A stretch of 64,000 bases of DNA from Patescibacteria group bacterium (lineage in GTDB: Bacteria > Patescibacteriota > Minisyncoccia > Phycocordibacterales > Phycocordibacteraceae), in assembly GCA_004322365.1 (NCBI GenBank), contig SCTS01000006.1, positions 160,756 to 224,755 of the forward strand. Direction: 5' to 3'. Below the pieces are notes generated by a model. That model had not been told where the DNA came from and made no database searches. It saw nothing but the letters and a program-made list of their open reading frames with translations. The translations under genes and the position numbers were made by a program. Positions 3,508 through 64,000 of the stretch are shown piece after piece (positions within the stretch are counted from its first letter, which is position 1; the number at the start of each line of letters is the position of its first letter).

Positions 3508-4176
3508 TTATCGTGTAAGTACGAGTGAATAACGAATTGCATCAAATTCTTTCAATAGCGCCTGCTTATCGAACGCCTCTACTGTGCCGGGGCTATAGTT
3601 GCCAATGTTCGTAGAATGGAAAAAATAGCGCACTGCCGTGCAAGGCACACTTCCTGAAATCACGTACACGATTTCTTCATAAAGATTACCTGCGCCAGCA
3701 CCAGCAGTCTTTGTCATTAAGTAGGTGGTACCTTTTTCTTTTAATGTCTTCGACACCAAACCCTCTTCAACAAAACTGGTGCCCGTACATGGCGCTACAC
3801 GAGGAAGTATCTCTACAGAAACACCGGTATCGATATGCGAGAGATTGTTTCCCTCTGTGTATGACTTAGGAATTTTAAACTGCACCCCTTTACTGCCTTG
3901 ACGCGAACCAAGTTCCGTACGTACGGATGAAGAATCAGCGATATATTCTGGTGGATATAAAATAGAAATACCAAGTTTTGTAGAATCAAATTCACGCCAA
4001 CCTTCAGGAACACTTGCGTTTGCAACAAGTGTCGAGTCATCAAAAAATAAGCTGAGAGTTGAAGGGTGATAAAAAACCCACAGAGACAGGAGGCATGCAA
4101 TCGCCAGAACGATTACCAACCACTGCATGACACTGCCCCGAACCACCCTCCTGTTCATACCTTCAGAATAGAACAT
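3508..4176 (-). CDS. Hypothetical membrane-anchored protein
   Basis: 222 aa with an N-terminal TM helix (WLVIVLAIACLLSLWVF) and no known motif. Confidence 0.45.
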   Translation of the reverse strand: MFYSEGMNRRVVRGSVMQWLVIVLAIACLLSLWVFYHPSTLSLFFDDSTLVANASVPEGWREFDSTKLGISILYPPEYIADSSSVRTELGSRQGSKGVQFKIPKSYTEGNNLSHIDTGVSVEILPRVAPCTGTSFVEEGLVSKTLKEKGTTYLMTKTAGAGAGNLYEEIVYVISGSVPCTAVRYFFHSTNIGNYSPGTVEAFDKQALLKEFDAIRYSLVLTR

Positions 4177-24747: not shown

Positions 24748-25034
24748 AAGAGGGATTCGGTCACAAGTAAATTTCCTGACGGAAATTTCTTGCTACCCCG
24801 ACTCGGTACTTTTGCCTTGAGCTATCGCTCAAACAAAAGTATACCTCCGTCATTCGAATCCCTCACGTAACACATGCCTATGTGTTACGTGAGGGATTCG
24901 GTCACGAATCACTAAGTATTTTACTCCTAGCGCTCGTAAAATACTAAGTGTTCTCGACCCCGGCTCAGAAAAGCTCTCCCAGAGCTTTTCTTCCGCCTTT
25001 CGAATCCCAGCACCTATTCCACATAAATAAAAAA

Positions 25035-31145: not shown

Positions 31146-33146
31146 CTATACCTGATGCTCGATGTCTTTTTTCTTTTTTGGTGTAATACCTCCCGCAATC
31201 AAGACTTTCTCAAACTCGTCACGCTCTACCGTCTCTACTTCAACAAGTTTTGCGGCAATCATGTCCAAGAGCTTGCGATGCTTCACAATTAAGTCCTTGG
31301 CCTTCTCGTGAGCGTCATCTATTATTTTCTTCACCTCTGAATCAATCTTTGCTGACACTTCTTCTGAATACTCCTTGTCTGAAACACCACGACCGAAAAG
31401 CGTGCGACCCCCTTCGCCCTCGAGGGCCATTGGCCCCAAAGTGTCGGACATACCGTACTTAGTAACCATGTCACGAGCAAGTGCCGTTGCTACCTGCAAG
31501 TCGTTTGATGGCCCTGTAGTCAAGTCACCAAATACTTCCATTTCAGCAACATACCCACCTAAAGAAACTGCGATGTCATCCAAGAATTCTTTCTTTGATT
31601 GCATCTTTGTATCTTCATCTGGCAACTTCAATGTGTACCCAGCAGCACGGCCACGAGAAATGATGGAAATTTTATGCACGGGGTCCGCGTACGGCAAGAT
31701 GGATGCAACGAGTGCATGTCCTCCTTCGTGATATGCAGTAATTTCTTTTTCTTTTTTATTAAGAAGGTGACTTCTTCTTTCGGGACCAAGCATTACTTTC
31801 TCGATGGAACGCACCAAGTCAAACTGTGCAACCTTCTTTCTGTTTTCTCTCGCAGCGAGAATGGCACCCTCGTTCATCAATGAATACAAATCAGCACCAG
31901 AAAATCCAGGAGTGCGCTCTGCGATAGTGCGAAGCACCACATCTTCTGCGAGAGGTTTTTTGCGTGCGTGCACCTTCAATATTGCCTCTCGATCGTCACG
32001 GTCTGGTAAATCAATGGTGACGCGCCTGTCAAACCTACCAGGGCGGAGAAGTGCTGGATCAAGAACATCGGGGCGGTTAGTTGCCGCCATAATGATAACT
32101 TTTTCATTCGGTTCAAAGCCATCCATCTCAACGAGGATTTGGTTCAGTGTTTGCTCTCGTTCATCATTTCCACCACCAACACCTGTGCCACGAATACGAC
32201 CGACTGCATCAATTTCATCAATGAAGATAATCGCAGGAGCTGCGTGTTTTGCCATATGAAAGAGGTCTCGCACACGAGAAGCACCAACGCCGACAAACAT
32301 CTCTACGAATTCAGAACCAGAGATTGAAAAGAACGGTACACCTGCTTCACCTGCAACAGCTCGGCCAAGCAATGTCTTACCTGTTCCAGGGGCACCCATA
32401 AGAAGAACGCCCTTTGGAATACGTGCACCGATATCCAAGAATTTTTTTGGATTCTTCAAAAAGTCTACGATTTCGGTCAGTTCCTCTTTTGCTTCTCGTG
32501 CGCCAGCAACATCACTGAATGTAACGCGTTGATTCAAGTCTTTCGGATCTATCATTCGTGCCTTTGACTGACCGAAGGTGAACGCTTGCATTCCTGCCCC
32601 ACGAACTTGCTTCGAGAGAAACCAAATGAATACGATGATGAGTATAAGAGGGAGAATGATGGGAGCTAGTGTGAAGAACCAGAATTGAAAACCACTCTGA
32701 TCTTTAACCTCAATCGAAACTTTTGATATTTCGTCTGCTTTCAAACCGTAGTTTGAAAGTGTTGTTGAAAGTGCGGTGTTGGACTCTTTCTTACTCGATC
32801 TCTTGCTGGTGTCAGTGTAGGTAGCGGTTAACTTATCGCCCTCGACGATAATGCTTTTTACGGAATCAGTCTTTATATCTGCGGCAAGCTGTGAAAGGGT
32901 TACATCTTTAACGTCCACCTTTTGTCCAAAGAAAAAAGAATAGAGAGATGCGAGAATCAGCACCACCAATACTATTGAGGTTATATTATTCCACCCACCT
33001 CCCTTTGCTGGCATACCGGGCATACCTTTTGGAACAAAATTTTTCAAAGGGTTTTTATCTTTGATTGGTTTTTTCTTGTCTGGAGTTTCTTTGAGATTGA
33101 TTTCAGGCATCTGGCTATTATATACGGCTACTCGCAAGAACACCAA
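31146..33146 (-). CDS. ftsH: ATP-dependent zinc metalloprotease FtsH
   Basis: 666 aa with two TM segments, an AAA module ([15 protein letters not shown]) and an HEGGH zinc site. Confidence 0.9.
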
Positions 33147-33187
33147 AGATAATAAATAAAACCCCTCTTATGGAGGGGTTTTATTTA

Positions 33188-33997
33188 TTATCTTTTGTCT
33201 CCAGTCTTCGGCTTAACTGGCGGGGTTACTGGTGGAGTAGGAGGGTACCCATATCCAGGTGGACGCTTAACGGTAAGTAGATTCCCTTTTGCACTTCCAA
33301 CATTTACCGCTCCGATCTGATTCCCACATTTTGAGTAACCGTATTTATTCTTATAGCCATATCGAATTGTCTTGCATTGATCGCCCACAGCAGAGCCGGA
33401 AGTAATAGATGCCTTGAGTTGAACGGCTTGCATACCCGCTCTTGTATAGGAAGGTTTTCCGACGATGGTAATTGTCCCTGTGGTTTGTGTGAGATAGATA
33501 GGGAGGTCTTTCTTAAAGACGAGCACATACGTGTCACCGTTAATGAACGAGACTGAAGTAGGTTCCAAAGATTGCATCATCCCGCAGGCACCGCCTTTAT
33601 AACCATACCCGTAGGTGACACCTTCATTGACGCAATATGCGTAGTGAAGAGCAAAGTCCGTCACGGAAAGTGATGGAGCCTGGCGACCAGAAACCGGTAT
33701 CGAAACTGTGAACGAATTGAGTGTTGCTTGCCATTTAACATTCATTGCTTTTACATCAAAAACAGCAAGAATTTGTGATGTGTCATTCACTAGGCTACCT
33801 GTTGGACTCTTAGCGGAACGAGCGATGATAACAGTTGGTCTTCCAGAAAAGGATGACAAAACATTTGCAACTAAAACATTGGAATCAGCAACAGCCATCC
33901 CAGACACTGCAAAGAAAGAGCCTCCAGTAATCACTCCCGCAACCAGAAGTGAGAGGAAAACTTTCATGGAGTTCCCTTTTTTATTCATTGCTGTCAT
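33188..33997 (-). CDS. Secreted hypothetical protein
   Basis: 269 aa with a signal peptide and Gly/Tyr-rich regions. Confidence 0.5.
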   Translation of the reverse strand: MTAMNKKGNSMKVFLSLLVAGVITGGSFFAVSGMAVADSNVLVANVLSSFSGRPTVIIARSAKSPTGSLVNDTSQILAVFDVKAMNVKWQATLNSFTVSIPVSGRQAPSLSVTDFALHYAYCVNEGVTYGYGYKGGACGMMQSLEPTSVSFINGDTYVLVFKKDLPIYLTQTTGTITIVGKPSYTRAGMQAVQLKASITSGSAVGDQCKTIRYGYKNKYGYSKCGNQIGAVNVGSAKGNLLTVKRPPGYGYPPTPPVTPPVKPKTGDKR

Positions 33998-36000: not shown

Positions 36001-36392
36001 GGGGGTGACTGGTTTCGACGGAGAATTTCCTCTGTTGCGCGCAAGACGGTGAATGCTGGAGATCACCTTAAACCTCGAGCACTGAAACGTGCAAACGCTT
36101 CTATAAAGAGCCCTTACAATTTCGCTTTTGCGACTGCGTAAGTTCCCTCTTCCGTCCTCGCTTCGGCCGGGACGGCGCTAGGCTTCTGATGTCTAATAGG
36201 AAGACTCTAGTGCCATAACATCAGACTCTATTCTTCTTTACTGCTCGTAGAAAAGAATGAAATTGAAGAGCTCGGATAGGTGTCATTTTGTTCGTTCTCT
36301 ACCCACCTGTCTTAAACCTTGAAACGAACTATGTCTTGTAGAAACGCTTCGGAGACCCTCTCTGTACGGGAGTTCGACTCTCCCCACCTCCA
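36001..36392 (+). ncRNA. ssrA: tmRNA (ssrA)
   Basis: 5' GGGGGTGACTGGTTTCGACGG and 3' GGGAGTTCGACTCTCCCCACCTCCA form a tRNA-like domain. Internal ORF GCA AAC GCT ... GCG TAA predicts the tag ANASIKSPYNFAFATA. Lies immediately downstream of smpB. Confidence 0.8.
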
Positions 36393-36440
36393 CAAATAAA
36401 AATTACCTGCGTGCGCAGGTAATTTTTATTTGTGGAGGTG
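36383..36440 (+). terminator. Exceptionally long perfect hairpin (about 27 bp) overlapping the tmRNA 3' end
   Basis: Sequence ccacctccacaaataaaaattacctgcg tg cgcaggtaatttttatttgtggaggtgg. Confidence 0.6.
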
Positions 36441-36464
36441 GAACAAGCAAATAGTTTTGCTTGT

Positions 36465-54771: not shown

Positions 54772-55155
54772 TTACTTCTTAGCTCCGGCCTTAGCCTTAC
54801 CATCAGCAGGTGCCTTTGCTGCTTGTGCTGCTGCAATTTCAGACTCTTTCTTCTTCTGCTCAAGTTCTTTCTGCATCTTACCTCCGTGACGAGTAAACTT
54901 CGTCGTTGATGAAAATTCACCAAGGCGGTGCCCTACCATTTCCTCTGTAACAAACACTTCAGGAAAATCCTTTCCGTTATGAACAAGGAAAACGAAACCA
55001 ACCATTTCAGGGCTGATTTCAGATGCACGAGCCCATGTCTTAATAGGTGCTGTTACGCCTGGCTTCTTACCCTCAATCTTCTTTAGAAGCTTGTGGGCGA
55101 CATACGGACCTTTTTTAAGTGAACGAGACATTGTTGTAGTTTTGACCCAAATCAA
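54772..55155 (-). CDS. rpsS: 30S ribosomal protein S19 (Lys/Ala-rich C-terminal extension)
   Basis: Core [11 protein letters not shown]...HNGKDF...VGHRLGEF. The likely start is the internal ATG near 55131. Confidence 0.9.
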
Positions 55156-55226
55156 GTGCGCACTAAGAAAAATGCGCCCTCACGAGCTTTGAGCATACTA
55201 TCCCAATCACCCGCCCACTGTCAATC

Positions 55227-56025
55227 TCATTTGTGCAACCTCCGGAGGTTGCACAAATGAGCACTGAATCCGAAATGAAAAAATTTACAAAATGATACCT
55301 TCTAATTCTTCAGCTAGAAGTTTTTTGCTGGTTGTTTTAACAAAGTCGGCGTAATTACTTTTTGCTGTTATAGCAAACTGCCCTGTGATAATTTCGGGGA
55401 CAATGAGCCCTCCCCATCGGTTCGCGTCACTAAAATCTTGGAGCGACGACCAAGGATACTCGAATTCCTTTCCTGACCATTCTCGTATGTCACTGGGGTT
55501 TCTATGAATATAGGCGGATGCATATAAAAGCTGGGAATCTGTTTTTACATGCACCGCTTTGTACGGACCCTGAAATACATGCCCCGAGGTTTCATACTTA
55601 GTATTATAATATTTTGTATATCCGTCAGATACGCGTTGCATGTAGCGTGCCATTCCCCCTTCAATAGTTTCTTTGACCAACAAGTGAAAATGGTTGGACA
55701 TCAGACAAAAACAAACCACTTCCACAAAACGACTCTCGATAATGGACTCGATATCTTCGTTAGGAACGGAAAAACCAATTTCTGGAATAAAACTTTCAGT
55801 AATGCGCGATAGGTTTTTAAATTGATGGGGAGATTGCAGAAACAAAACATTAAAAAGGAACCGGTGCCAGTCACGCTTATCTTTAAAAATAGTCTGCCTA
55901 TGCGCACCGCGATTGAACACATGATAGTACTCCCCCGGAGCAATACCTTCTCGTGACTTTGATACGGCCTTACGCATTACTGTAGGCTAGCATATCCCTG
56001 TGCAACCTCCGGAGGTTGCACAGGG
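55227..56025 (-). mobile_element. IS200/IS605-like minimal element / REP-RAYT unit: Y1 HUH transposase flanked by near-identical perfect palindromic hairpins
   Basis: Left palindrome tcatttgtgcaacctccggaggttgcacaaatga at 55227-55260. Right palindrome ccctgtgcaacctccggaggttgcacaggg at 55996-56025. The two share a 24-nt core TGTGCAACCTCCGGAGGTTGCACA. Sits between rpsS and rplB. Confidence 0.75.
55285..55977 (-). CDS. Y1 (HUH) transposase, IS200-like / REP-associated tyrosine transposase (RAYT)
   Basis: 230 aa with YHVFNRG, an HuH motif MSNHFHLLV and a catalytic Tyr region GYTKYYN. Has a C-terminal extension relative to 150-aa IS200 TnpA. Confidence 0.75.
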   Translation of the reverse strand: MRKAVSKSREGIAPGEYYHVFNRGAHRQTIFKDKRDWHRFLFNVLFLQSPHQFKNLSRITESFIPEIGFSVPNEDIESIIESRFVEVVCFCLMSNHFHLLVKETIEGGMARYMQRVSDGYTKYYNTKYETSGHVFQGPYKAVHVKTDSQLLYASAYIHRNPSDIREWSGKEFEYPWSSLQDFSDANRWGGLIVPEIITGQFAITAKSNYADFVKTTSKKLLAEELEGIIL

Positions 56026-56055
56026 GGTTCTGAAAACAAGAAAAATTACTTCGAA

Positions 56056-59000
56056 TTAGAACTCATCGAAGCGAGGAGTAACACCTATAGTCACTGACTT
56101 TGAGCTCGGCACTCCTCCAGTCAAACAATTCATGGTGTAGGTGCTTTGTTGATTTATGATCACAGACTGTGCGCCCGAAAAAGCTGTTGAGGAAAGACCG
56201 GGACCGGAGATTGAACATGTATCAGGAGTGCCTACCACTCCCCACGACACCGTTGCAGGGTCGCCTTGGCGAACAGTAACACTTGGACTTATGGTGAGAG
56301 TAATGTCGGCAGGATTTACAGTAACCGTGGCACTTGAAGATGCGCTTCGTGTACCATTAGTACAAGTGATACCGTAGGTTGTAGTAACTGGAGGGGAAAC
56401 AGTAACCGAACCAACGGTTGCGCCCCCTGTTGGGAAGTTAGTTCCTGTACAAGAAGTGGTGTAAGAAGATGTCCAGTCAATGCGTGGAGAGGTTACTCCC
56501 TTAATAATAACAGGTGGTGAGACAGTAATAATCACTGTTGGAGTGTTCTGTATAGTTCCCGTTGCGCATGTCGCAGTAACTGACCCTGTACCTGAGGTCA
56601 CAATAACTGAAGCCGATTTCGTACCAGCGCTACCATATGTCTTCGAGACAGTTGCACCTGTGCCAAGAAGTCCGTCAGTACCACTCCACACATAGGTGTA
56701 TGAACCTACTCCTCCTGAAGGTGTGACAGACCATGTTAATGAATCCCCCACATATCCAGTACTTGGTGATGGGGAACACGATGCTGAGAGTGCTCCGGGG
56801 TTCACTGATAATGATGTCCACGCACTACAATTATCAAGCTCATTGGACTCACTCACTTCATTAAGTGGTGTGTCGGCACAAAAACGCATCTGGTACGAAC
56901 CCGGTGAAGGAAATGTGTAGCTACCTGTTTGTGTACCGCTACCCCCAGCTACAATCGATATTCGACTTAAAGCAATCTTAATTGACGTATTGGCTTCGGC
57001 AAAATTAATAAAGAAACTAAAAATACGACTCCAAATAGAATCTGATTGGGTGAGGTAATTATTAAGACAAGCACTATCTGAACTAAGGCACACATACATC
57101 CTTGAACCGAAAACTGGAGTCGCTGCACCACCAATATTGGTAACACCCGCAGTGAATGTGGTATTTACTCCTGCGGTTACACTCGTAGGAGAAAGAGACC
57201 CTGTAGTTAAATCTGCCAAAGAAACGCCAACTACTACAGAGTTGGAGCAACTTGCGGTTGTTGATAGTGGCGCTGACGCAGTTGCCATACCTGCAAAATA
57301 ATTATGTCTCGTTGTGTTACCAGTAGTTGAGGTTTTTGAGGCAAGAGAGGCATTCGAATATGCTTCGTAGCGATAGTAGGTGTTAACTGGTTGCCCAGTT
57401 GAATTCACAGTCTCTCGTACATCAACACTACAGCAACCACCTGCAGGAGTTATATCTGCACACGATCCTGCCATAGAGCTAGTATTGAGAGTAAATCCGA
57501 CACCATCCTCGGTAGTACCATAACTACCTACCTTCGTACCTCCAGAGCAGTGCTTTTCCCCTTGAAGCGTAACAGAAGTTGCGCCGGAAGGGCTAGTGAT
57601 AGTGATTGAGGCTGTTTTTGTACCGACAGTTGTATATGTTTTTGAAATAGACGCAACAGCACCCGAGAGACTATCAGTACCACTCCATAAATACGTGTAT
57701 GAACCAGTTCCACCCGATGCAGAGGCAGTCCAAGCCACGGGACTACCGGTATAGACACTCGTTGGAGATACCGAACATGACCCAGAAAGAGTGCCAGGGG
57801 GAGGTGAATTTACCTGAACATTTGCGGTAGCGAAAGCGGTCTGGGGAGTCGTAGCAGGAGAGGCACCAACACACTGGTACACAGCTGTTTCAATTTGACA
57901 CGAATCATTGGCCACATTTATTTTACATACATTACCGCTTCCTACCCCACTGCAAGATTTCCCTGCTGGACTTGAGGGGCACCATGCTAATCCAGAATAA
58001 GCAATTTCAAGACTTGACACTCTGGTTACACCTACATTACAAGCAAAATCACTGATGTCATTATATGAAAGCTGCCACGTACCTGATGACGCGGCACTCG
58101 CCCCCGTACAGGTAATAGAATAGTTAGTCGTTGCACTTAACGCTCCAGTCGAAATAGAGCCTGATGTGTTACCTCCAGTCTCAAATCCACCACCAACACA
58201 AGAAATCGCATTGGTTGAGGACCATGTGAGAGTAGCGGAAGATCCAGAATTCAAACTTGTTGGAGTTGCAGAGAGTGAAACCGTGGGTGATGCAATAGCA
58301 CTAACAGTAACTGTTTGCGACGCTGAGGCGGACCCACCAGCACCAGTACATGAAACAAGATAACTGGTTGTTTGCGATGGAGTAACTGTTACAGAGCCTG
58401 CGGTTGCAGAGGATGTTGAGAAGTTAGTTCCTGTGCAGGAAGTTGCATTAGTTGAACTCCAGGTGATAACTGACGACGCACCCACTACAAGAGAAGTTGG
58501 GTTTGCAGAAAGTGATGCAGTTGGTGCAACCACAGGCGCACTAACGGTAACCGTTGCGAAAGAAGACACTGTCTGGGAACCATCGGTACAGGTAATTGAA
58601 TAAGTTATTGAAGAGGGAGGTGAAACGATAAGTGAACCTGCAGTAGCACCTCCCGTTGAAAAGTTGGTGCCGGTGCACGAAGTCACATAATCCGAAGTCC
58701 ATGTTAAGAGAGCCGAACCTCCACTAGATATAGAAGAAGGAGTGGCAATAATGCCTACATAGGGTGTTGTTGGTTCCACAACACAACCTTCATCTATGTC
58801 GCCGATAGTCGCAACCTGGTAGGTACTTTGCACTGTATAACTATCCCCGCCATATACTGCGCGAAATGCTGCTTCACCTGCACTACCTGGAGGGAAAGGA
58901 TTAGTCACTACTGTGTAGTCATACTCCCATGTGGTACCTGTACAGTCACCGCCTCCTGTTGGACCAGCATATGCTAATTGAGGAATCGCACTGAATACAG

Positions 59001-59079
59001 CGAGCATAAAAATGGCACCAATGAAAAAAGTTTTAAAAGCGGGAATAGTAAGTTGGCGGAGAGCTTGCATTGCATTCAT
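56056..59079 (-). CDS. Very large secreted protein with tandem roughly 70-aa Ig-like repeats (Thr/Ser/Gly-rich)
   Basis: 1007-aa uninterrupted ORF with a signal peptide. Repeats such as ..SSGGSALLTWTSDYVTSCTGTNFSTGGATAGSLIVSPPSSITYSITCTDGSQTVSS..TVTVS and ..ITWSSTNATSCTGTNFSTSSATAGSVTVTPSQTTSYLVSCTG.. recur at least five times. Confidence 0.7.
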   Translation of the reverse strand: MNAMQALRQLTIPAFKTFFIGAIFMLAVFSAIPQLAYAGPTGGGDCTGTTWEYDYTVVTNPFPPGSAGEAAFRAVYGGDSYTVQSTYQVATIGDIDEGCVVEPTTPYVGIIATPSSISSGGSALLTWTSDYVTSCTGTNFSTGGATAGSLIVSPPSSITYSITCTDGSQTVSSFATVTVSAPVVAPTASLSANPTSLVVGASSVITWSSTNATSCTGTNFSTSSATAGSVTVTPSQTTSYLVSCTGAGGSASASQTVTVSAIASPTVSLSATPTSLNSGSSATLTWSSTNAISCVGGGFETGGNTSGSISTGALSATTNYSITCTGASAASSGTWQLSYNDISDFACNVGVTRVSSLEIAYSGLAWCPSSPAGKSCSGVGSGNVCKINVANDSCQIETAVYQCVGASPATTPQTAFATANVQVNSPPPGTLSGSCSVSPTSVYTGSPVAWTASASGGTGSYTYLWSGTDSLSGAVASISKTYTTVGTKTASITITSPSGATSVTLQGEKHCSGGTKVGSYGTTEDGVGFTLNTSSMAGSCADITPAGGCCSVDVRETVNSTGQPVNTYYRYEAYSNASLASKTSTTGNTTRHNYFAGMATASAPLSTTASCSNSVVVGVSLADLTTGSLSPTSVTAGVNTTFTAGVTNIGGAATPVFGSRMYVCLSSDSACLNNYLTQSDSIWSRIFSFFINFAEANTSIKIALSRISIVAGGSGTQTGSYTFPSPGSYQMRFCADTPLNEVSESNELDNCSAWTSLSVNPGALSASCSPSPSTGYVGDSLTWSVTPSGGVGSYTYVWSGTDGLLGTGATVSKTYGSAGTKSASVIVTSGTGSVTATCATGTIQNTPTVIITVSPPVIIKGVTSPRIDWTSSYTTSCTGTNFPTGGATVGSVTVSPPVTTTYGITCTNGTRSASSSATVTVNPADITLTISPSVTVRQGDPATVSWGVVGTPDTCSISGPGLSSTAFSGAQSVIINQQSTYTMNCLTGGVPSSKSVTIGVTPRFDEF

Positions 59080-59134
59080 TGTACAGGGAATTTATACCTA
59101 CCGTTAAAGTAAAGTCGCGAGAGGTGGAATAACA

Positions 59135-59164
59135 AAAAACTCTCCACATGGTGGAGAGTTTTTT
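59135..59164 (-). terminator. Rho-independent terminator immediately 3' of rplB
   Basis: Sequence aaaactctccac atg gtggagagtttt flanked by A/T runs. Confidence 0.6.
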
Positions 59165-59167
59165 GTT

Positions 59168-60031
59168 TTAGCTTCCTGATTTTCGCTTTTTCCCGACACG
59201 ACGACGAGAAACAATGAATGGATTTGAGTATTTCTTTGGAGTTCGTGTTTTCTGACCCTTTCCTGACGGCTTGCCCCACATGGTGCGCTGTCTTCGGTGA
59301 CCACGACCCTGACGGCCTTCACCTCCTCCATGTGGGTGGTCCACTGGGTTCATTGCAGTACCACGAACCGTTGGGCGAATACCCATGTGTCGTGCGCGAC
59401 CTGCTTTACCAATGATGACGAGGTGATGTGCATCATTTGAAACTTCACCGATAGATGCCCACGCAGTATCAACTACTTTACGAACTTCAGTCGAAGGGAG
59501 TTTTATTTGAGCGTAGCCAGCATCGAGCGCAATCAATTCAGCGTGGTTACCTGCACTTCGTGCCATTTTTGCACCACCATTTGCATGCACTTCAATATTG
59601 TAGATGAATGTACCGATTGGGATGTTCTTCAAAGGAAGTCGGTTACCGGGAGTGATAGGAGCAGTTTCTGAAGTAATGACTTTATCGCCAACCTTTAAAG
59701 ATTTTGGTGCGAGTATGTATCGGCGCTCACCGTCAACATCTACAATACGAGCAATAAAGCCTGTGCGTGTAGGATCGTATTCAATGTGCTCAACTTTTCC
59801 TGGAATATTTTTCTTAGCGAACATGAAATCAACCACACGCATCTGTTGCTTGTGTCCACCTCCTTGGTGACGGGTGGTGATGCGACCAAGTGAGTTTCTA
59901 CCTGCGTGATTTTTCTTTCCTTTCGTCAAAGATTTCAATGGCTTGCCGGTCGTCAAGACATCGCGATAACGAATCACGCTCATGTGGCGAGTGGATGCGG
60001 TTCGTGCTTTGTAATTTCGTGTAGTAGACAT
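59168..60031 (-). CDS. rplB: 50S ribosomal protein L2
   Basis: 287 aa. Confidence 0.9.
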   Translation of the reverse strand: MSTTRNYKARTASTRHMSVIRYRDVLTTGKPLKSLTKGKKNHAGRNSLGRITTRHQGGGHKQQMRVVDFMFAKKNIPGKVEHIEYDPTRTGFIARIVDVDGERRYILAPKSLKVGDKVITSETAPITPGNRLPLKNIPIGTFIYNIEVHANGGAKMARSAGNHAELIALDAGYAQIKLPSTEVRKVVDTAWASIGEVSNDAHHLVIIGKAGRARHMGIRPTVRGTAMNPVDHPHGGGEGRQGRGHRRQRTMWGKPSGKGQKTRTPKKYSNPFIVSRRRVGKKRKSGS

Positions 60032-60048: not shown

Positions 60049-60447
60049 TTATGAGAAACGGATAGTGTCTCCTTTCTTTAAAAATACCAAAGCCTTTCTT
60101 GTTGCAGAAGTCTTACCAAAACCTCGCTTCTTTCTCATTTGCACTCGCTTTGCTGGAGTATTCACTACATTTACCTTGATTGGCATAACTTTGTAGAGAG
60201 CATTGACTGCCATAGCGACATCCTTCTTTGTTGCTGATTTGCGAATATCAAATGTATAGACTCCGTTTGCAGTCATGTTTGCTGCCTTCTCCGTAATGCG
60301 GGGACGCACCAAAATATTTGCGTACTCAGCAAGAGCTGAAGGACGATCAGTTTTTTTAGTAGCAGAAACTTTTGTTTCAACTTTTTTGACTTCTGCCTTT
60401 GGAGCATCAGTCTTCTTTGTATTCGTTTTTGATTTAAAAATTGCCAT
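60049..60447 (-). CDS. rplW: 50S ribosomal protein L23 (Lys-rich N-terminal extension)
   Basis: 132 aa. Confidence 0.85.
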   Translation of the reverse strand: MAIFKSKTNTKKTDAPKAEVKKVETKVSATKKTDRPSALAEYANILVRPRITEKAANMTANGVYTFDIRKSATKKDVAMAVNALYKVMPIKVNVVNTPAKRVQMRKKRGFGKTSATRKALVFLKKGDTIRFS

Positions 60448-60453
60448 AAAAAT

Positions 60454-61143
60454 TTATTTCTCTAGTCGTTCTGTAAGCGTTTTAACAGACACCTTCGGAT
60501 CTACAACGAGAATATAACGGTAGGTGAGCAAGTCAACTGGATTTGCGTTTCTCGCCTCATCAACCATCACGTTCTTCATGTTGCGGAAGCTCTTTACTAC
60601 CGCGACATCATGCTTCGAAAGAAGGATGAGTGCTGCGTTGTTTCTGCGTGTAGCGAGCTCAGCAAATCCTTCTATTTTAGCAAGGCCACCGAGGGTTGCC
60701 TTTGCATCCTTTGTTTTTGGAGCCTTGAAAGAAAGCGAGTCAACAAAAATCATTTTTCCTTTACGGAGTTTTTCTGAAAGAACTGTTGCGACTGCCTTCG
60801 CACGCATCTTCTTATTGATTTTCTGTGAGAAATCGCGTTCCTTTACTGGTCCGTGAGTCGTACCTCCTCCTCTCCAGATTGGAGATCGAATAGAACCGTG
60901 ACGAGCTCGGCCAGTACCCTTTTGCTTCCATGGCTTCTTACCGCCACCACGTACCTCACCACGACCCTTCGTGTGAGCAACAGGAGTGCGAGCGTTCGCT
61001 TGCATAGCAAGAACAACCTGATGCACCAAAGCATCATTTCTCTTTGCATCAAAAATGCCCTCTGGGAGTTCAATCTCCCCTACTTCTTTTGCGCTTGTAT
61101 TGTAAATTGAAGCTTTCATATATTTATTTTCCTCGAATTTCAA
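60454..61143 (-). CDS. rplD: 50S ribosomal protein L4
   Basis: 229 aa. Confidence 0.9.
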   Translation of the reverse strand: MKFEENKYMKASIYNTSAKEVGEIELPEGIFDAKRNDALVHQVVLAMQANARTPVAHTKGRGEVRGGGKKPWKQKGTGRARHGSIRSPIWRGGGTTHGPVKERDFSQKINKKMRAKAVATVLSEKLRKGKMIFVDSLSFKAPKTKDAKATLGGLAKIEGFAELATRRNNAALILLSKHDVAVVKSFRNMKNVMVDEARNANPVDLLTYRYILVVDPKVSVKTLTERLEK

Positions 61144-61732
61144 TCACGGTACCTTTGCGTCCTGGAACTGCTCCACGAACAAAAATTTCATTCTTTACGC
61201 CGTCAACACGAATGACCTCAAGGTTTGGAACAGTCACACGGTCAGAACCCATTCGTCCTGCCATGCGCATACCTTTCACCACACGACCTCCTGCTCGGCC
61301 TGGACCTCCTCCTGAAGAACCGCGCTCTCTTTCAGAATGTTTCTGACCGTGTGTGCGGGGACCTCCTTTGAAGCCGTAGCGCTTCACAACGCCCTGGAAA
61401 CCTTTTCCTTTTGAAATTCCTGAAACGACAACGCTTTCACCTTCTGAGAAAGCAGTGACATCAAAAGTTGCACCTACTTCAAGTGCCTCAGCACCATCAA
61501 AGCGAAATTCACGAAGTCCACGAACATTTCCCTTAGGTTGCTGTGGTTTTGCAATGCGTGATTGCTTCTGCTCACCGTAACCCACCTGTACTGCCTTGTA
61601 GCCGTCAGTATCAATATTCTTAACTTGGGTCACTGTAACCTTTGGTGCATGTATAACGGTAACAGGCACAGCGTGACCCGCTGCATTGAAGACCTGTGTC
61701 ATTCCTTGTTTTGTTCCTATGATGAATTTCAT
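61124..61732 (-). CDS. rplC: 50S ribosomal protein L3
   Basis: 202 aa. Confidence 0.9.
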   Translation of the reverse strand: MKFIIGTKQGMTQVFNAAGHAVPVTVIHAPKVTVTQVKNIDTDGYKAVQVGYGEQKQSRIAKPQQPKGNVRGLREFRFDGAEALEVGATFDVTAFSEGESVVVSGISKGKGFQGVVKRYGFKGGPRTHGQKHSERERGSSGGGPGRAGGRVVKGMRMAGRMGSDRVTVPNLEVIRVDGVKNEIFVRGAVPGRKGTVIEIRGK

Positions 61733-62416
61733 TAGTTTTTTGTTGGCGAGTCCTTGAGTCTAGAAAAATCTAACCCTGTTAAATCCCCGTTCCGGGGACG
61801 CTTCGTACTCGAAGCGTATTTAACAGGGTTCTGAGAATCTAATCGCTACGCTCAAGATTCTCTAGAAAAAAACGCACACCGGTATTCGCAGTGTGCGATA
61901 TACCATTGGTTTACCCTGAGCTTGTCGAAGGGTCCGATCCTTTCGATGTTTCGGAGGCAAACGTAGCGTTTCAGCTACTATACACAAAGCATCTAAAAGA
62001 TGCAAGAAACCAAGTACCGAGACGAAACCTAGGTACTTTTACACGTATCTGATACAGATATTTCAGCCGTGAAGTATGCTTTGAACACGAGACCGCGAAA
62101 GAGGCTCGGTTGGAAAACTCCTCTAGAAATCTAGAGTGGTGCACTTACCTGTTGAACTTAAGATAGAAATACTTGACAGAAGGTTTCTAATATGCTATTA
62201 TTCACACATCGTTTAAACACTTAAATTTTTTCTATGAAAGAGGGACTCAAATTAATTTCACGACAAGGTGGTTTTAAAACGACCGGTCCAGGTTTAGAAC
62301 ACTGCCCCGATCCTGATGCTATCGTATCCGGTTATGTATACAATAAACTTAACAAATTATGGTATAAAAAGGCCTAAGAACAGGAGAAAATAGAACGTGT
62401 ACGCAACACAAACTAA

Positions 62417-62442
62417 AAACCGCCCTTTTGGGCGGTTTTTTC
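62417..62442. terminator. Strong bidirectional hairpin terminator inside the rpsJ-rplC spacer
   Basis: Sequence aaaaaccgcccttttgggcggtttttt. Confidence 0.65.
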
Positions 62443-62594
62443 GATCTTTTTTACAGCCCTCCACAATTTCTCTGAGATGAGAAATTGGGAGGACTTAAGA
62501 AAATCTAAGCAAGCTTTGCTTTAAGGTCTCTAAAGGCCGAAGCGAAACGCTTCGGCACTCAACAAATTCTAAATCGCAACGCGATTAAGAATTT

Positions 62595-62990
62595 CTAGAG
62601 CATTCTGACATCAACCGAGACGCCGGATGGCAATGACAAGTTCGTCAAAGCATCAATGATTTTTGGAGTTGGATTCACAATGTCCAAGATACGCTTATGA
62701 GTACGAATCTCAAACTGCTCACGAGCATCTTTGTAGACGAACGATGAGGCATTGACCGTGAATTTCTTGATATCAGTTGGAAGTGGGATGGGCCCTACAA
62801 CCTCCGCATCAAAGCGAAGCGCTGTGTCAATAATTTGCTTTACCGAAGCATCCAAGACTTTGTGGTCATATGCGCGAACACGGAGACGCAATTTGCCTAC
62901 ACCCGCAACTGGAGCCGCAGATTTCGCTGTCTTTGCTCCTGCTTTTGGTGCCTTGCGGACAGGCGTCTTTTTTTCTTTAGTGTCGGACAT
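62595..62990 (-). CDS. rpsJ: 30S ribosomal protein S10 (Lys/Ala-rich N-terminal extension)
   Basis: 131 aa with core KLRLRVRAYDHKVLDASVKQIIDTA. Confidence 0.9.
   Translation of the reverse strand: MSDTKEKKTPVRKAPKAGAKTAKSAAPVAGVGKLRLRVRAYDHKVLDASVKQIIDTALRFDAEVVGPIPLPTDIKKFTVNASSFVYKDAREQFEIRTHKRILDIVNPTPKIIDALTNLSLPSGVSVDVRML

Positions 62991-63019: not shown

Positions 63020-64000
<981 letters not shown>

Follow-up and report, generated by a model that had tools for sequence, protein, structure and literature searches.

A RAYT-like Y1/HUH nuclease gene with bracketing perfect palindromes resides between rplB and rpsS in a clade of Patescibacteria

The window analysed here is a stretch of 64,000 nucleotides from a Patescibacteria group bacterium (assembly GCA_004322365.1, contig SCTS01000006.1, positions 160,756 to 224,755). 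Its S10-spc ribosomal-protein cluster was found to contain a gene for a Y1/HUH protein of 230 aa, located in the spacer between rplB and rpsS and bracketed by two perfect palindromes, P1 and P2. We consider it probable (about 0.7) that this is a vertically inherited, domesticated gene for a RAYT-type HUH/tyrosine single-stranded DNA (ssDNA) nuclease, accompanied by its own family of REP-like perfect palindromes (REP, repetitive extragenic palindrome; RAYT, REP-associated tyrosine transposase). The REP/RAYT system itself is already known; the present variant is of interest mainly because it is fixed in the S10 cluster throughout a clade of the candidate phyla radiation (CPR) and because its repeat family is small. 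The unit consists of the following features:

55226-55261, palindrome P1 (rpsS-proximal), perfect, 36 nt, with the core 24-mer at 55232-55255
55285-55977, minus strand, Y1/HUH (RAYT-like) nuclease gene, 230 aa
55984-55992, minus strand, putative extended -10 element of the Y1 gene, TGCTAGCCT
55996-56025, palindrome P2 (distal), perfect, 30 nt, with the core 24-mer at 55999-56022

A Y1 orthologue was present between rplB and rpsS in 14 out of 14 loci with enough flanking DNA, at 53-99% identity (loci are cited below by their L numbers). An empty site between the two genes, which the first-pass annotation had envisaged in relatives, was not found among these, all 14 orthologous loci sampled being occupied. 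In six loci the gene was in sense orientation, i.e., on the strand of the ribosomal genes: the window, L001 (88%), L007 (99%), L011/L013, L016 (92%), and L111 (82%). In the other eight it was antisense and divergent from rpsS: L003 (71%), L112 (66%), L023 (58%), L021 (57%), L106 (56%), L109 (55%), L022 (54%), and L108 (53%). Orientation was uniform by clade, with all six loci at ≥82% identity in sense and all eight at ≤71% in antisense orientation. The simplest reading of these orientations is one inversion, in the clade at ≥82% identity, and the inverted segment was shown to be bounded exactly by the palindromes.

The orthologues formed a single cluster at 50% identity, with a gap in score to the next representative (280 vs. 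214 bits), and none of 80 metagenome homologues at 29-51% identity adjoined ribosomal-protein genes. Between genomes of the window's clade, the ratio of non-synonymous to synonymous substitution rates (dN/dS) was 0.02-0.14 at a dS of 0.25 to approximately 1.2, which shows strong purifying selection. Fixed synteny together with low dN/dS supports that the Y1 gene is a long-standing, selected resident of the rplB-rpsS spot. The earlier suggestion that the element may be single-copy or recently acquired is contradicted by the shared spacer in 14 of 14 loci, by the purifying selection and by the dispersal of the palindromic 24-mer in related genomes described below.

P1 and P2 share the 24-mer TGTGCAACCTCCGGAGGTTGCACA. 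P1 is separated from the Y1 stop codon by 23 nt and from the rpsS -35 box by 1 nt; P2 is found between the Y1 gene, whose start codon is 18 nt away, and a neighbouring PKD/CARDB gene, whose stop codon is 30 nt away. The previous description of bracketing perfect palindromes was correct for the 30-nt one and for the shared 24-mer core, but P1 was found to be 36 nt long and not 34 nt. No further copies of the 24-mer were detected in the 64 kb at ≤3 mismatches (shuffled sequences expect 0), nor at ≤5 substitutions, in agreement with what had been noted before; degenerate copies or half-sites in the window amounted to two chance-level 1-mismatch half-sites. Folding of both palindromes as ssDNA gave stems of 13-16 bp with a CCGG loop (z = -5.2 to -6.9). 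The foot of the palindrome (TGTGCA/TGCACA) is fully paired, the outer flanks are not conserved, and the 24-mer core is free of stop codons in all six frames. Rfam searches gave nothing real at the hairpins, either across the whole window at the gathering threshold or in 55100-56100 at an E-value threshold. Intrinsic terminators were considered as the identity of P1 and P2 and rejected, as no T-tract follows either hairpin.

Some further observations were made on the palindromes of other loci. The P1 orthologue of L001 (6702-6745) is a perfect palindrome of 44 nt whose far arm is the complement of the -35 box (CAAC/GTTG), and palindromes thus seem to grow outward, one flank being turned into the complement of its counterpart. 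Runs of N were found exactly inside the rpsS-side palindrome of L106 (about 2940-2950) and L107, which are independent assemblies of Kaiserbacteria; the perfect palindrome may hamper assembly at this site, or the stretch may have been masked. In L108, two palindrome types flank one gene: the palindrome downstream of Y1 (3702-3737) is CCTATCTGTGCAATGTCCGGACATTGCACAGATAGG, which resembles the window core, and the one upstream is TGTTCAACAC-ACCA-GTGTTGAACA.

The palindromes were found to go with the Y1 gene. Among distant homologues, a perfect palindrome was found just upstream of the gene in 32 of 64 and just downstream in 32 of 64, and one lineage-specific palindrome occurred on both sides in 20 of the 64 compared to 0 of 205 shifted control windows. 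This family-wide layout, similar to that of REP/RAYT units (REPtrons), supports the earlier proposal that the hairpins would be cognate recognition sites of the protein. Of the two architectures put forward in the first-pass annotation, the REP-RAYT layout is thereby upheld, whereas a minimal IS200/IS605 insertion sequence (IS) is not, given a Y---NP tyrosine motif, no TnpB or second Y1 copy in the 64 kb, and undifferentiated ends.

Among the orthologues, the rpsS-side palindrome varied in sequence and kept its symmetry. The half-sites were TTTGTGCAACCTCC in the window, TTCGTCAAGAACCC in L003, TTTGGTCAACACCC in L022, and ATTGGCAAACACCC in L109, and 94% of cells were paired, compared to 33-42% in slid controls. 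Changes on both sides were seen for 11 of 14 pairs, with no one-sided or G-T change (123 cells). The lack of wobble pairs points to symmetry on DNA level (a hairpin, a cruciform or a dimer site) rather than to an RNA stem. Besides, in L111 ACCCGGGT replaces the CTCCGGAG of the window in both bracketing copies, and the copies therefore change in concert.

The identification of the 230-aa product as a Y1/HUH protein was confirmed with Pfam PF01797 (Y1_Tnp), whose match to residues 76-160 scored 33.7 bits (E = 4.5e-8), the gathering score being 23. The AlphaFold (AF2) model, with a predicted local distance difference test (pLDDT) value of 88, showed its best PDB match to 4er8, the E. coli TnpA_REP bound to a REP hairpin (E = 1.6e-5, target template modelling (TM) score 0.67), and the next matches were the IS200/IS605 transposases ISDra2 and IS608 (2xo6, 2a6o). 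The three motifs listed previously, YHVFNRG (aa 18-24), NHFHLLV (95-101), and GYTKYYN (120-126), are all present in the open reading frame (ORF). An alignment of 27 homologues showed H96 and H98 of the HUH motif H96-F-H98 (NHFH) to be invariant, as were Y156, I, H, and P of YIHRNP (156-161), with R and N nearly so; GHVFQG, the SS motif YPWSSL (174-179) and a C-terminal extension of approximately 65 aa were also conserved. For the C-terminal 71 aa, no Pfam match better than E = 0.24 was obtained. The class 2 catalytic tyrosine lies in Y---NP, and therefore the catalytic tyrosine is probably Y156 of YIHRNP and not part of GYTKYYN, which had been listed among the motifs. Both the catalytic HUH and the Y---NP residues are retained, and by analogy with the known enzymes the protein is predicted to be enzymatically active.

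The family search gave more than 900 relatives, those named being Patescibacteria, Paceibacteria or Kaiserbacteria; for the window protein itself, no record of identical sequence was found. Neither a second Y1 copy nor TnpB was found in the 64-kb window. Plasmid and phage collections contained matches at ≤35% identity only; as these collections hardly cover Patescibacteria, the evidence from them is weak.

In related genomes the palindrome was found at additional places. The central 20-mer occurred in 17 stretches in five related metagenome-assembled genomes (MAGs), distributed as follows:

L001 genome, 749-kb contig, 7 copies
JBBAAE01, 5 copies
JAGOSG01, 4 copies
VMHB01, 2 copies, the distal bracketing copy with one loop mismatch
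A fragmentary MAG, 1 copy

All copies found contained the full 24-mer; the outer arms varied, usually adding 3-10 bp of pairing. Six of eight dispersed sites were located 5-75 nt past stop codons, between convergent genes, and two copies were located in frame inside genes, one encoding Dus and the other a CofE-like protein; the core is translated there as VQPPEVAQ. Dispersed copies were shown to occupy orthologous places in different genomes. The sites included one between the genes for the CCA-adding enzyme and an ExoIII-like protein, one between the threonyl-tRNA synthetase (ThrRS) gene and a gene of approximately 1200 aa, and sites after the genes for alanine racemase, dihydrofolate reductase (DHFR), RNase R, and a tRNA-Arg. 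A further palindrome copy was observed to adjoin a different gene, of 1085-1245 aa (L010/L017).

None of the loci with dispersed copies overlaps the window, and the comparison with empty sites was made at Dus instead. Occupied Dus alleles were found in L004, L019/P0271, P0282, P0273, and P0274. The empty alleles read KYGK directly followed by PDVMW, and one of them, P0270 (DNA in L113), is 90% identical to L004. In the L003 genome, Dus reads VKNPG, which corresponds to the L003-type palindrome GTC AAG AAC CCG GGT and is in the same register as the VQPPE of the window-type core; in P0274, Dus reads VQNPGSAQ, the translation of the perfect palindrome TGTGCAGAACCCGGGTTCTGCACA. These lineage-matched cores indicate that dispersed copies track the palindrome of their own lineage, as REPs track their RAYT. 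The boundaries of the Dus insertion are ambiguous because the junction codons differ.

With regard to its surroundings, two transcription units, rpsJ-rplB with its own terminator and rpsS onward with its own promoter, are separated by the spacer that holds the unit:

63020-63940, minus strand, EF-Tu
62595-62990, minus strand, rpsJ
60049-61732, minus strand, rplC, rplD, rplW
59168-60031, minus strand, rplB (L2)
59131-59167, directly after rplB, canonical bidirectional intrinsic terminator with A-tract, 15-bp stem and T-tract, closing the upstream half of the S10 cluster
56056-59079, minus strand, PKD/CARDB gene, 1007 aa, hydrophobic N-terminus, between the Y1 gene and rplB
55224-55195, minus strand, sigma-70-like rpsS promoter with TTGACA (55224-55219), an 18-nt spacer and TAGTAT (55200-55195)
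55132-55188, minus strand, putative rpsS 5' leader
54772-55131, minus strand, rpsS (S19), likely start at the ATG at 55131 (MSRSLKKG...)
After rpsS, minus strand, rplV, rpsC, rplP, rpmC, rpsQ, rplN, rplX, rplE

The first-pass annotation thus named the right spacer, but the Y1 gene is not adjacent to rplB, as the 1007-aa PKD/CARDB ORF and the terminator intervene. Nor does the contiguity of rpsS and rplB that it took as normal apply here, where rplB ends in a terminator and rpsS is preceded by a conserved promoter of its own. The PKD/CARDB gene is outside the Y1/palindrome unit. It was found in the rplB-Y1 spacer of the sense loci window, L001, L013, and L016; in L111, also sense, this spacer is approximately 3 kb and no PKD gene was called. 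Other small ORFs in the rplB-Y1 spacer of L023, L108, and L111 suggest that the spacer is a variable cargo site.

The rpsS promoter was conserved in 10 of the 10 other orthologous loci aligned. The distance from the -35 box to the centre of the rpsS-side palindrome was 24 nt in 9 of 11 aligned loci, regardless of the direction of Y1; the exceptions were L021 (23 nt) and L109 (22 nt), and L112, outside the 11, showed approximately 44 nt. The rpsS leader is predicted to open with a conserved 4-bp stem and a stable tetraloop, GCUC-GUGA-GGGC (55187-55176), which appears to covary in L023 (GCUC-GAGA-GGGC) and L106 (GCGC-UUCG-GCGC). This stem-loop may be a 5'-end stabiliser or an attenuator. A GCGCAUUUUU run comes after it. 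For the Y1 gene, a reading of the sequence suggested an extended -10 element (TGn-TAnnnT) directly downstream of the start-proximal palindrome, with 6 nt between it and the ATG, and the same pattern of TGn-TAnnnT, 6 nt and start codon recurs in L001, L007, and L111. As this element is only 6 nt from the ATG, the Y1 mRNA would be leaderless. In the antisense loci L109 and L022, the -35 box is located inside the palindrome arm.

Some other intergenic features of the window were recorded. The rpsJ-rplC spacer (61733-62594; 860 nt) contains no ORF of ≥60 aa and showed only weak leader-like Rfam matches, around a terminator at 62415-62440; in L003 this spacer is approximately 125 nt. A tmRNA gene is present at 36001-36395 on the plus strand (Rfam, 99 bits); a perfect hairpin comes after it (36384-36441; stem of 25 bp). 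Other long perfect intergenic hairpins, with stems of 19-22 bp, were found at 33145-33195 and 24855-24900, and some of the long intergenic hairpins, e.g., 33145-33195, have the A/T-rich arms that are typical of bidirectional terminators.

By analogy with TnpA_REP and with the TnpA of IS608 and ISDra2, the protein would recognise the hairpin form of its cognate palindrome on ssDNA, and would nick and rejoin the strand there; the model follows the biochemistry of TnpA_REP and IS608 (PMC3479197; PMC6006769). Such an activity could spread or homogenise palindrome copies and may once have inverted the cassette between the palindromes. It would account for the bracketing pair, the few dispersed copies, the joint change of all copies between lineages, and the segment that is inverted in the window's clade as compared to the commoner antisense arrangement. 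Binding of the protein may in addition autoregulate the Y1 gene, and could influence or insulate the rpsS promoter. There is overlap between the start-proximal palindrome and the presumed Y1 promoter, and the rpsS-side palindrome directly adjoins the rpsS -35 box; the palindrome therefore probably also acts as an operator or insulator, to judge from its placement in the sequence.

Several points weigh against a domesticated RAYT with its own REP-like family. The cutoff of the NCBIfam RAYT equivalog NF047646 was not reached (29.6 vs. 80 bits), so that of the two profiles named in the first-pass annotation only Y1_Tnp scored above its threshold. The palindromes lack the GT[AG]G foot of canonical REPs, and a search beside the hairpins for a conserved tetranucleotide, either a TTAC-like cleavage motif as had been anticipated or a GTAG-like one, found none. 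The antisense loci L003, L021, L023, L109, and L112 contain only the rpsS-side palindrome. The copy number of the palindrome is far below that of classical REPs (tens to hundreds per genome), and the genome-wide counts come from a scan for exact cores of the central 20-mer in one genome per species, the counted genomes being five MAGs of one subclade that are 79-93% DNA-identical to the window. Symmetric change of the two arms is also expected for a duplex site of a symmetric dimer, so the hairpin form is not proven by it, and binding, cleavage, regulation and the inversion mechanism are all steps that we infer.

The palindromes might instead be host regulatory or terminator elements, i.e., an rpsS operator and 3'-end hairpins between convergent genes, with Y1 as an incidental neighbour that does not act on them. 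The 24-nt distance between -35 box and palindrome centre in 9 of 11 aligned loci, kept with either Y1 direction, agrees with this, and so does the location of six of eight dispersed sites 5-75 nt past the stops of convergent genes. However, distant homologues outside the ribosomal cluster are bracketed by palindromes of their own (20/64 vs. 0/205), and the palindrome sequence follows the Y1 lineage, also at the Dus site. The hairpins have no U-tract, whereas canonical A/T-tract terminators are used elsewhere in the genome, and unlike an RNA stem they showed no G-U pairs among the 123 cells. Copies are present inside ORFs, and L112 departs from the fixed spacing. We therefore regard this explanation as unlikely.

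A more far-reaching proposal is that in this Patescibacteria clade Y1 nuclease and palindrome are under selection as a module integral to the ribosomal-protein cluster. The HUH enzyme would act on a hairpin or cruciform abutting the rpsS promoter and so link the single-stranded or supercoiled state of the DNA, or the passage of replication, to transcription from rpsS to rplE; nick-and-copy would maintain the perfect symmetry of the palindromes and lengthen them at their outer ends, an example being L001, whose right arm is a copy of the -35 box. We put this forward as a speculative and improbable extension.

It is very unlikely that the unit is an invertible (phase-variable) cassette, in which recombination at the palindromic cores often flips Y1 and thereby switches Y1 expression or read-through into rpsS. 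Both orientations do occur among the orthologues, the palindromes bound the inverted segment, and a palindromic core permits inversion as well as deletion; however, orientation is uniform within clades and looks like the result of one ancient event, and the second palindrome is missing in many antisense loci.

An active or recently inserted minimal IS200/IS605-type IS that landed in the ribosomal-protein cluster by chance would share the Y1_Tnp fold, the hairpins at both ends and the occurrence of occupied and empty palindrome alleles at another locus (Dus), but it is highly improbable and largely refuted by synteny, given an unchanged position in each of the 14 orthologous loci, even at 53% identity, a dN/dS of 0.02-0.14, the class 2 motif Y---NP and not Y---Q (PMC6006769, Table 1), no TnpB and no second copy in 64 kb, the same palindrome at both ends in place of distinct left and right ends, and only distant matches in plasmids and phages.

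Throughout a broad clade of Patescibacteria with tiny genomes, a RAYT-like gene holds the same fixed place in what is the most conserved bacterial gene cluster. To our knowledge, RAYT/REP is the best case of a domesticated bacterial transposase, with a host function that is unknown, and it has been characterised almost only in Proteobacteria, Cyanobacteria, and Bacteroidetes. The repeat family described here has few copies per genome and is thus small and tractable, and can be studied copy by copy. As the palindromes change in concert and have occupied and empty alleles, one can test directly how enzyme and hairpin co-evolve and whether there is a link to the expression of ribosomal proteins. 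Besides, CPR phylogenomics makes wide use of the S10-spc cluster as a contiguous block of markers, and perfect palindromes at this spot can break or mask assemblies.

In the literature searched, nothing was found that links RAYT or TnpA_REP to Patescibacteria, CPR or the ribosomal operon. Compared to IS200/IS605 elements (IS608, ISDra2), the HUH/Y1 fold is shared, and hairpin recognition near the element ends is known from them; the other traits of these elements, namely a Y---Q motif, numerous near-identical copies, left and right ends that differ and have a target tetranucleotide, and frequently TnpB, were not seen here. Rickettsia palindromic elements (RPEs), which Ogata et al. reportedly described in 2000, are said to be about 100-150 bp long and to lie in frame inside protein-coding genes, and we know of no cognate enzyme for them. 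The palindrome studied here resembles them in being located in frame inside genes (Dus, CofE-like) without breaking these, but the unit is approximately 30 nt and is tied to a Y1 gene.

Class 2 of TnpA_Y1 is defined by the Y---NP tyrosine motif (PMC6006769). Within this class, subclass 2.1 (Bertels group 1, 'TIRYT') showed a matching signature of NH[YF]H / FQ / Y[IV]H.NP / SS (Quentin et al., 2018; PMC6006769, Table 1), and its length (~238, or about 230-240 aa, vs. 230 aa here) and C-terminal extension are also similar (PMC6006769). That subclass has been reported to be without REP-like sequences and to have C-termini of the helix-turn-helix (HTH) type (Bac_DnaA_C, HTH_23, HTH_28; PMC6006769), whereas here, in a comparison made by the published motif signature, the gene is flanked on both sides by perfect palindromes and its product has a C-terminus without a Pfam match.

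Differences from the REP/RAYT REPtrons of Enterobacteria and Pseudomonads (TnpA_Y1 subclasses 2.2 and 2.5; Bertels groups 2 and 3) include the missing GT[AG]G foot, perfect palindromes with a 4-nt apex instead of imperfect stems, and a score below the NCBIfam RAYT equivalog cutoff. Copies number 4-7 per ~0.75-Mb genome in the three best-covered relatives, as opposed to tens to hundreds, and REPIN doublets were not observed. Further differences are the Patescibacteria host, the locus fixed in the S10 cluster and the extra conserved C-terminal extension of ~65 aa. It resembles these REPtrons in encoding a class 2 Y---NP Y1/HUH protein whose best structural match, 4er8, is TnpA_REP itself, in a gene that is bracketed by cognate hairpins, that seems to exist as a single copy (there is one in the 64 kb) and is vertically kept, and whose hairpin sequence is lineage-specific, with more copies located mostly just past the 3' ends of genes (REPtron features compared from PMC6006769; PMC5581495).

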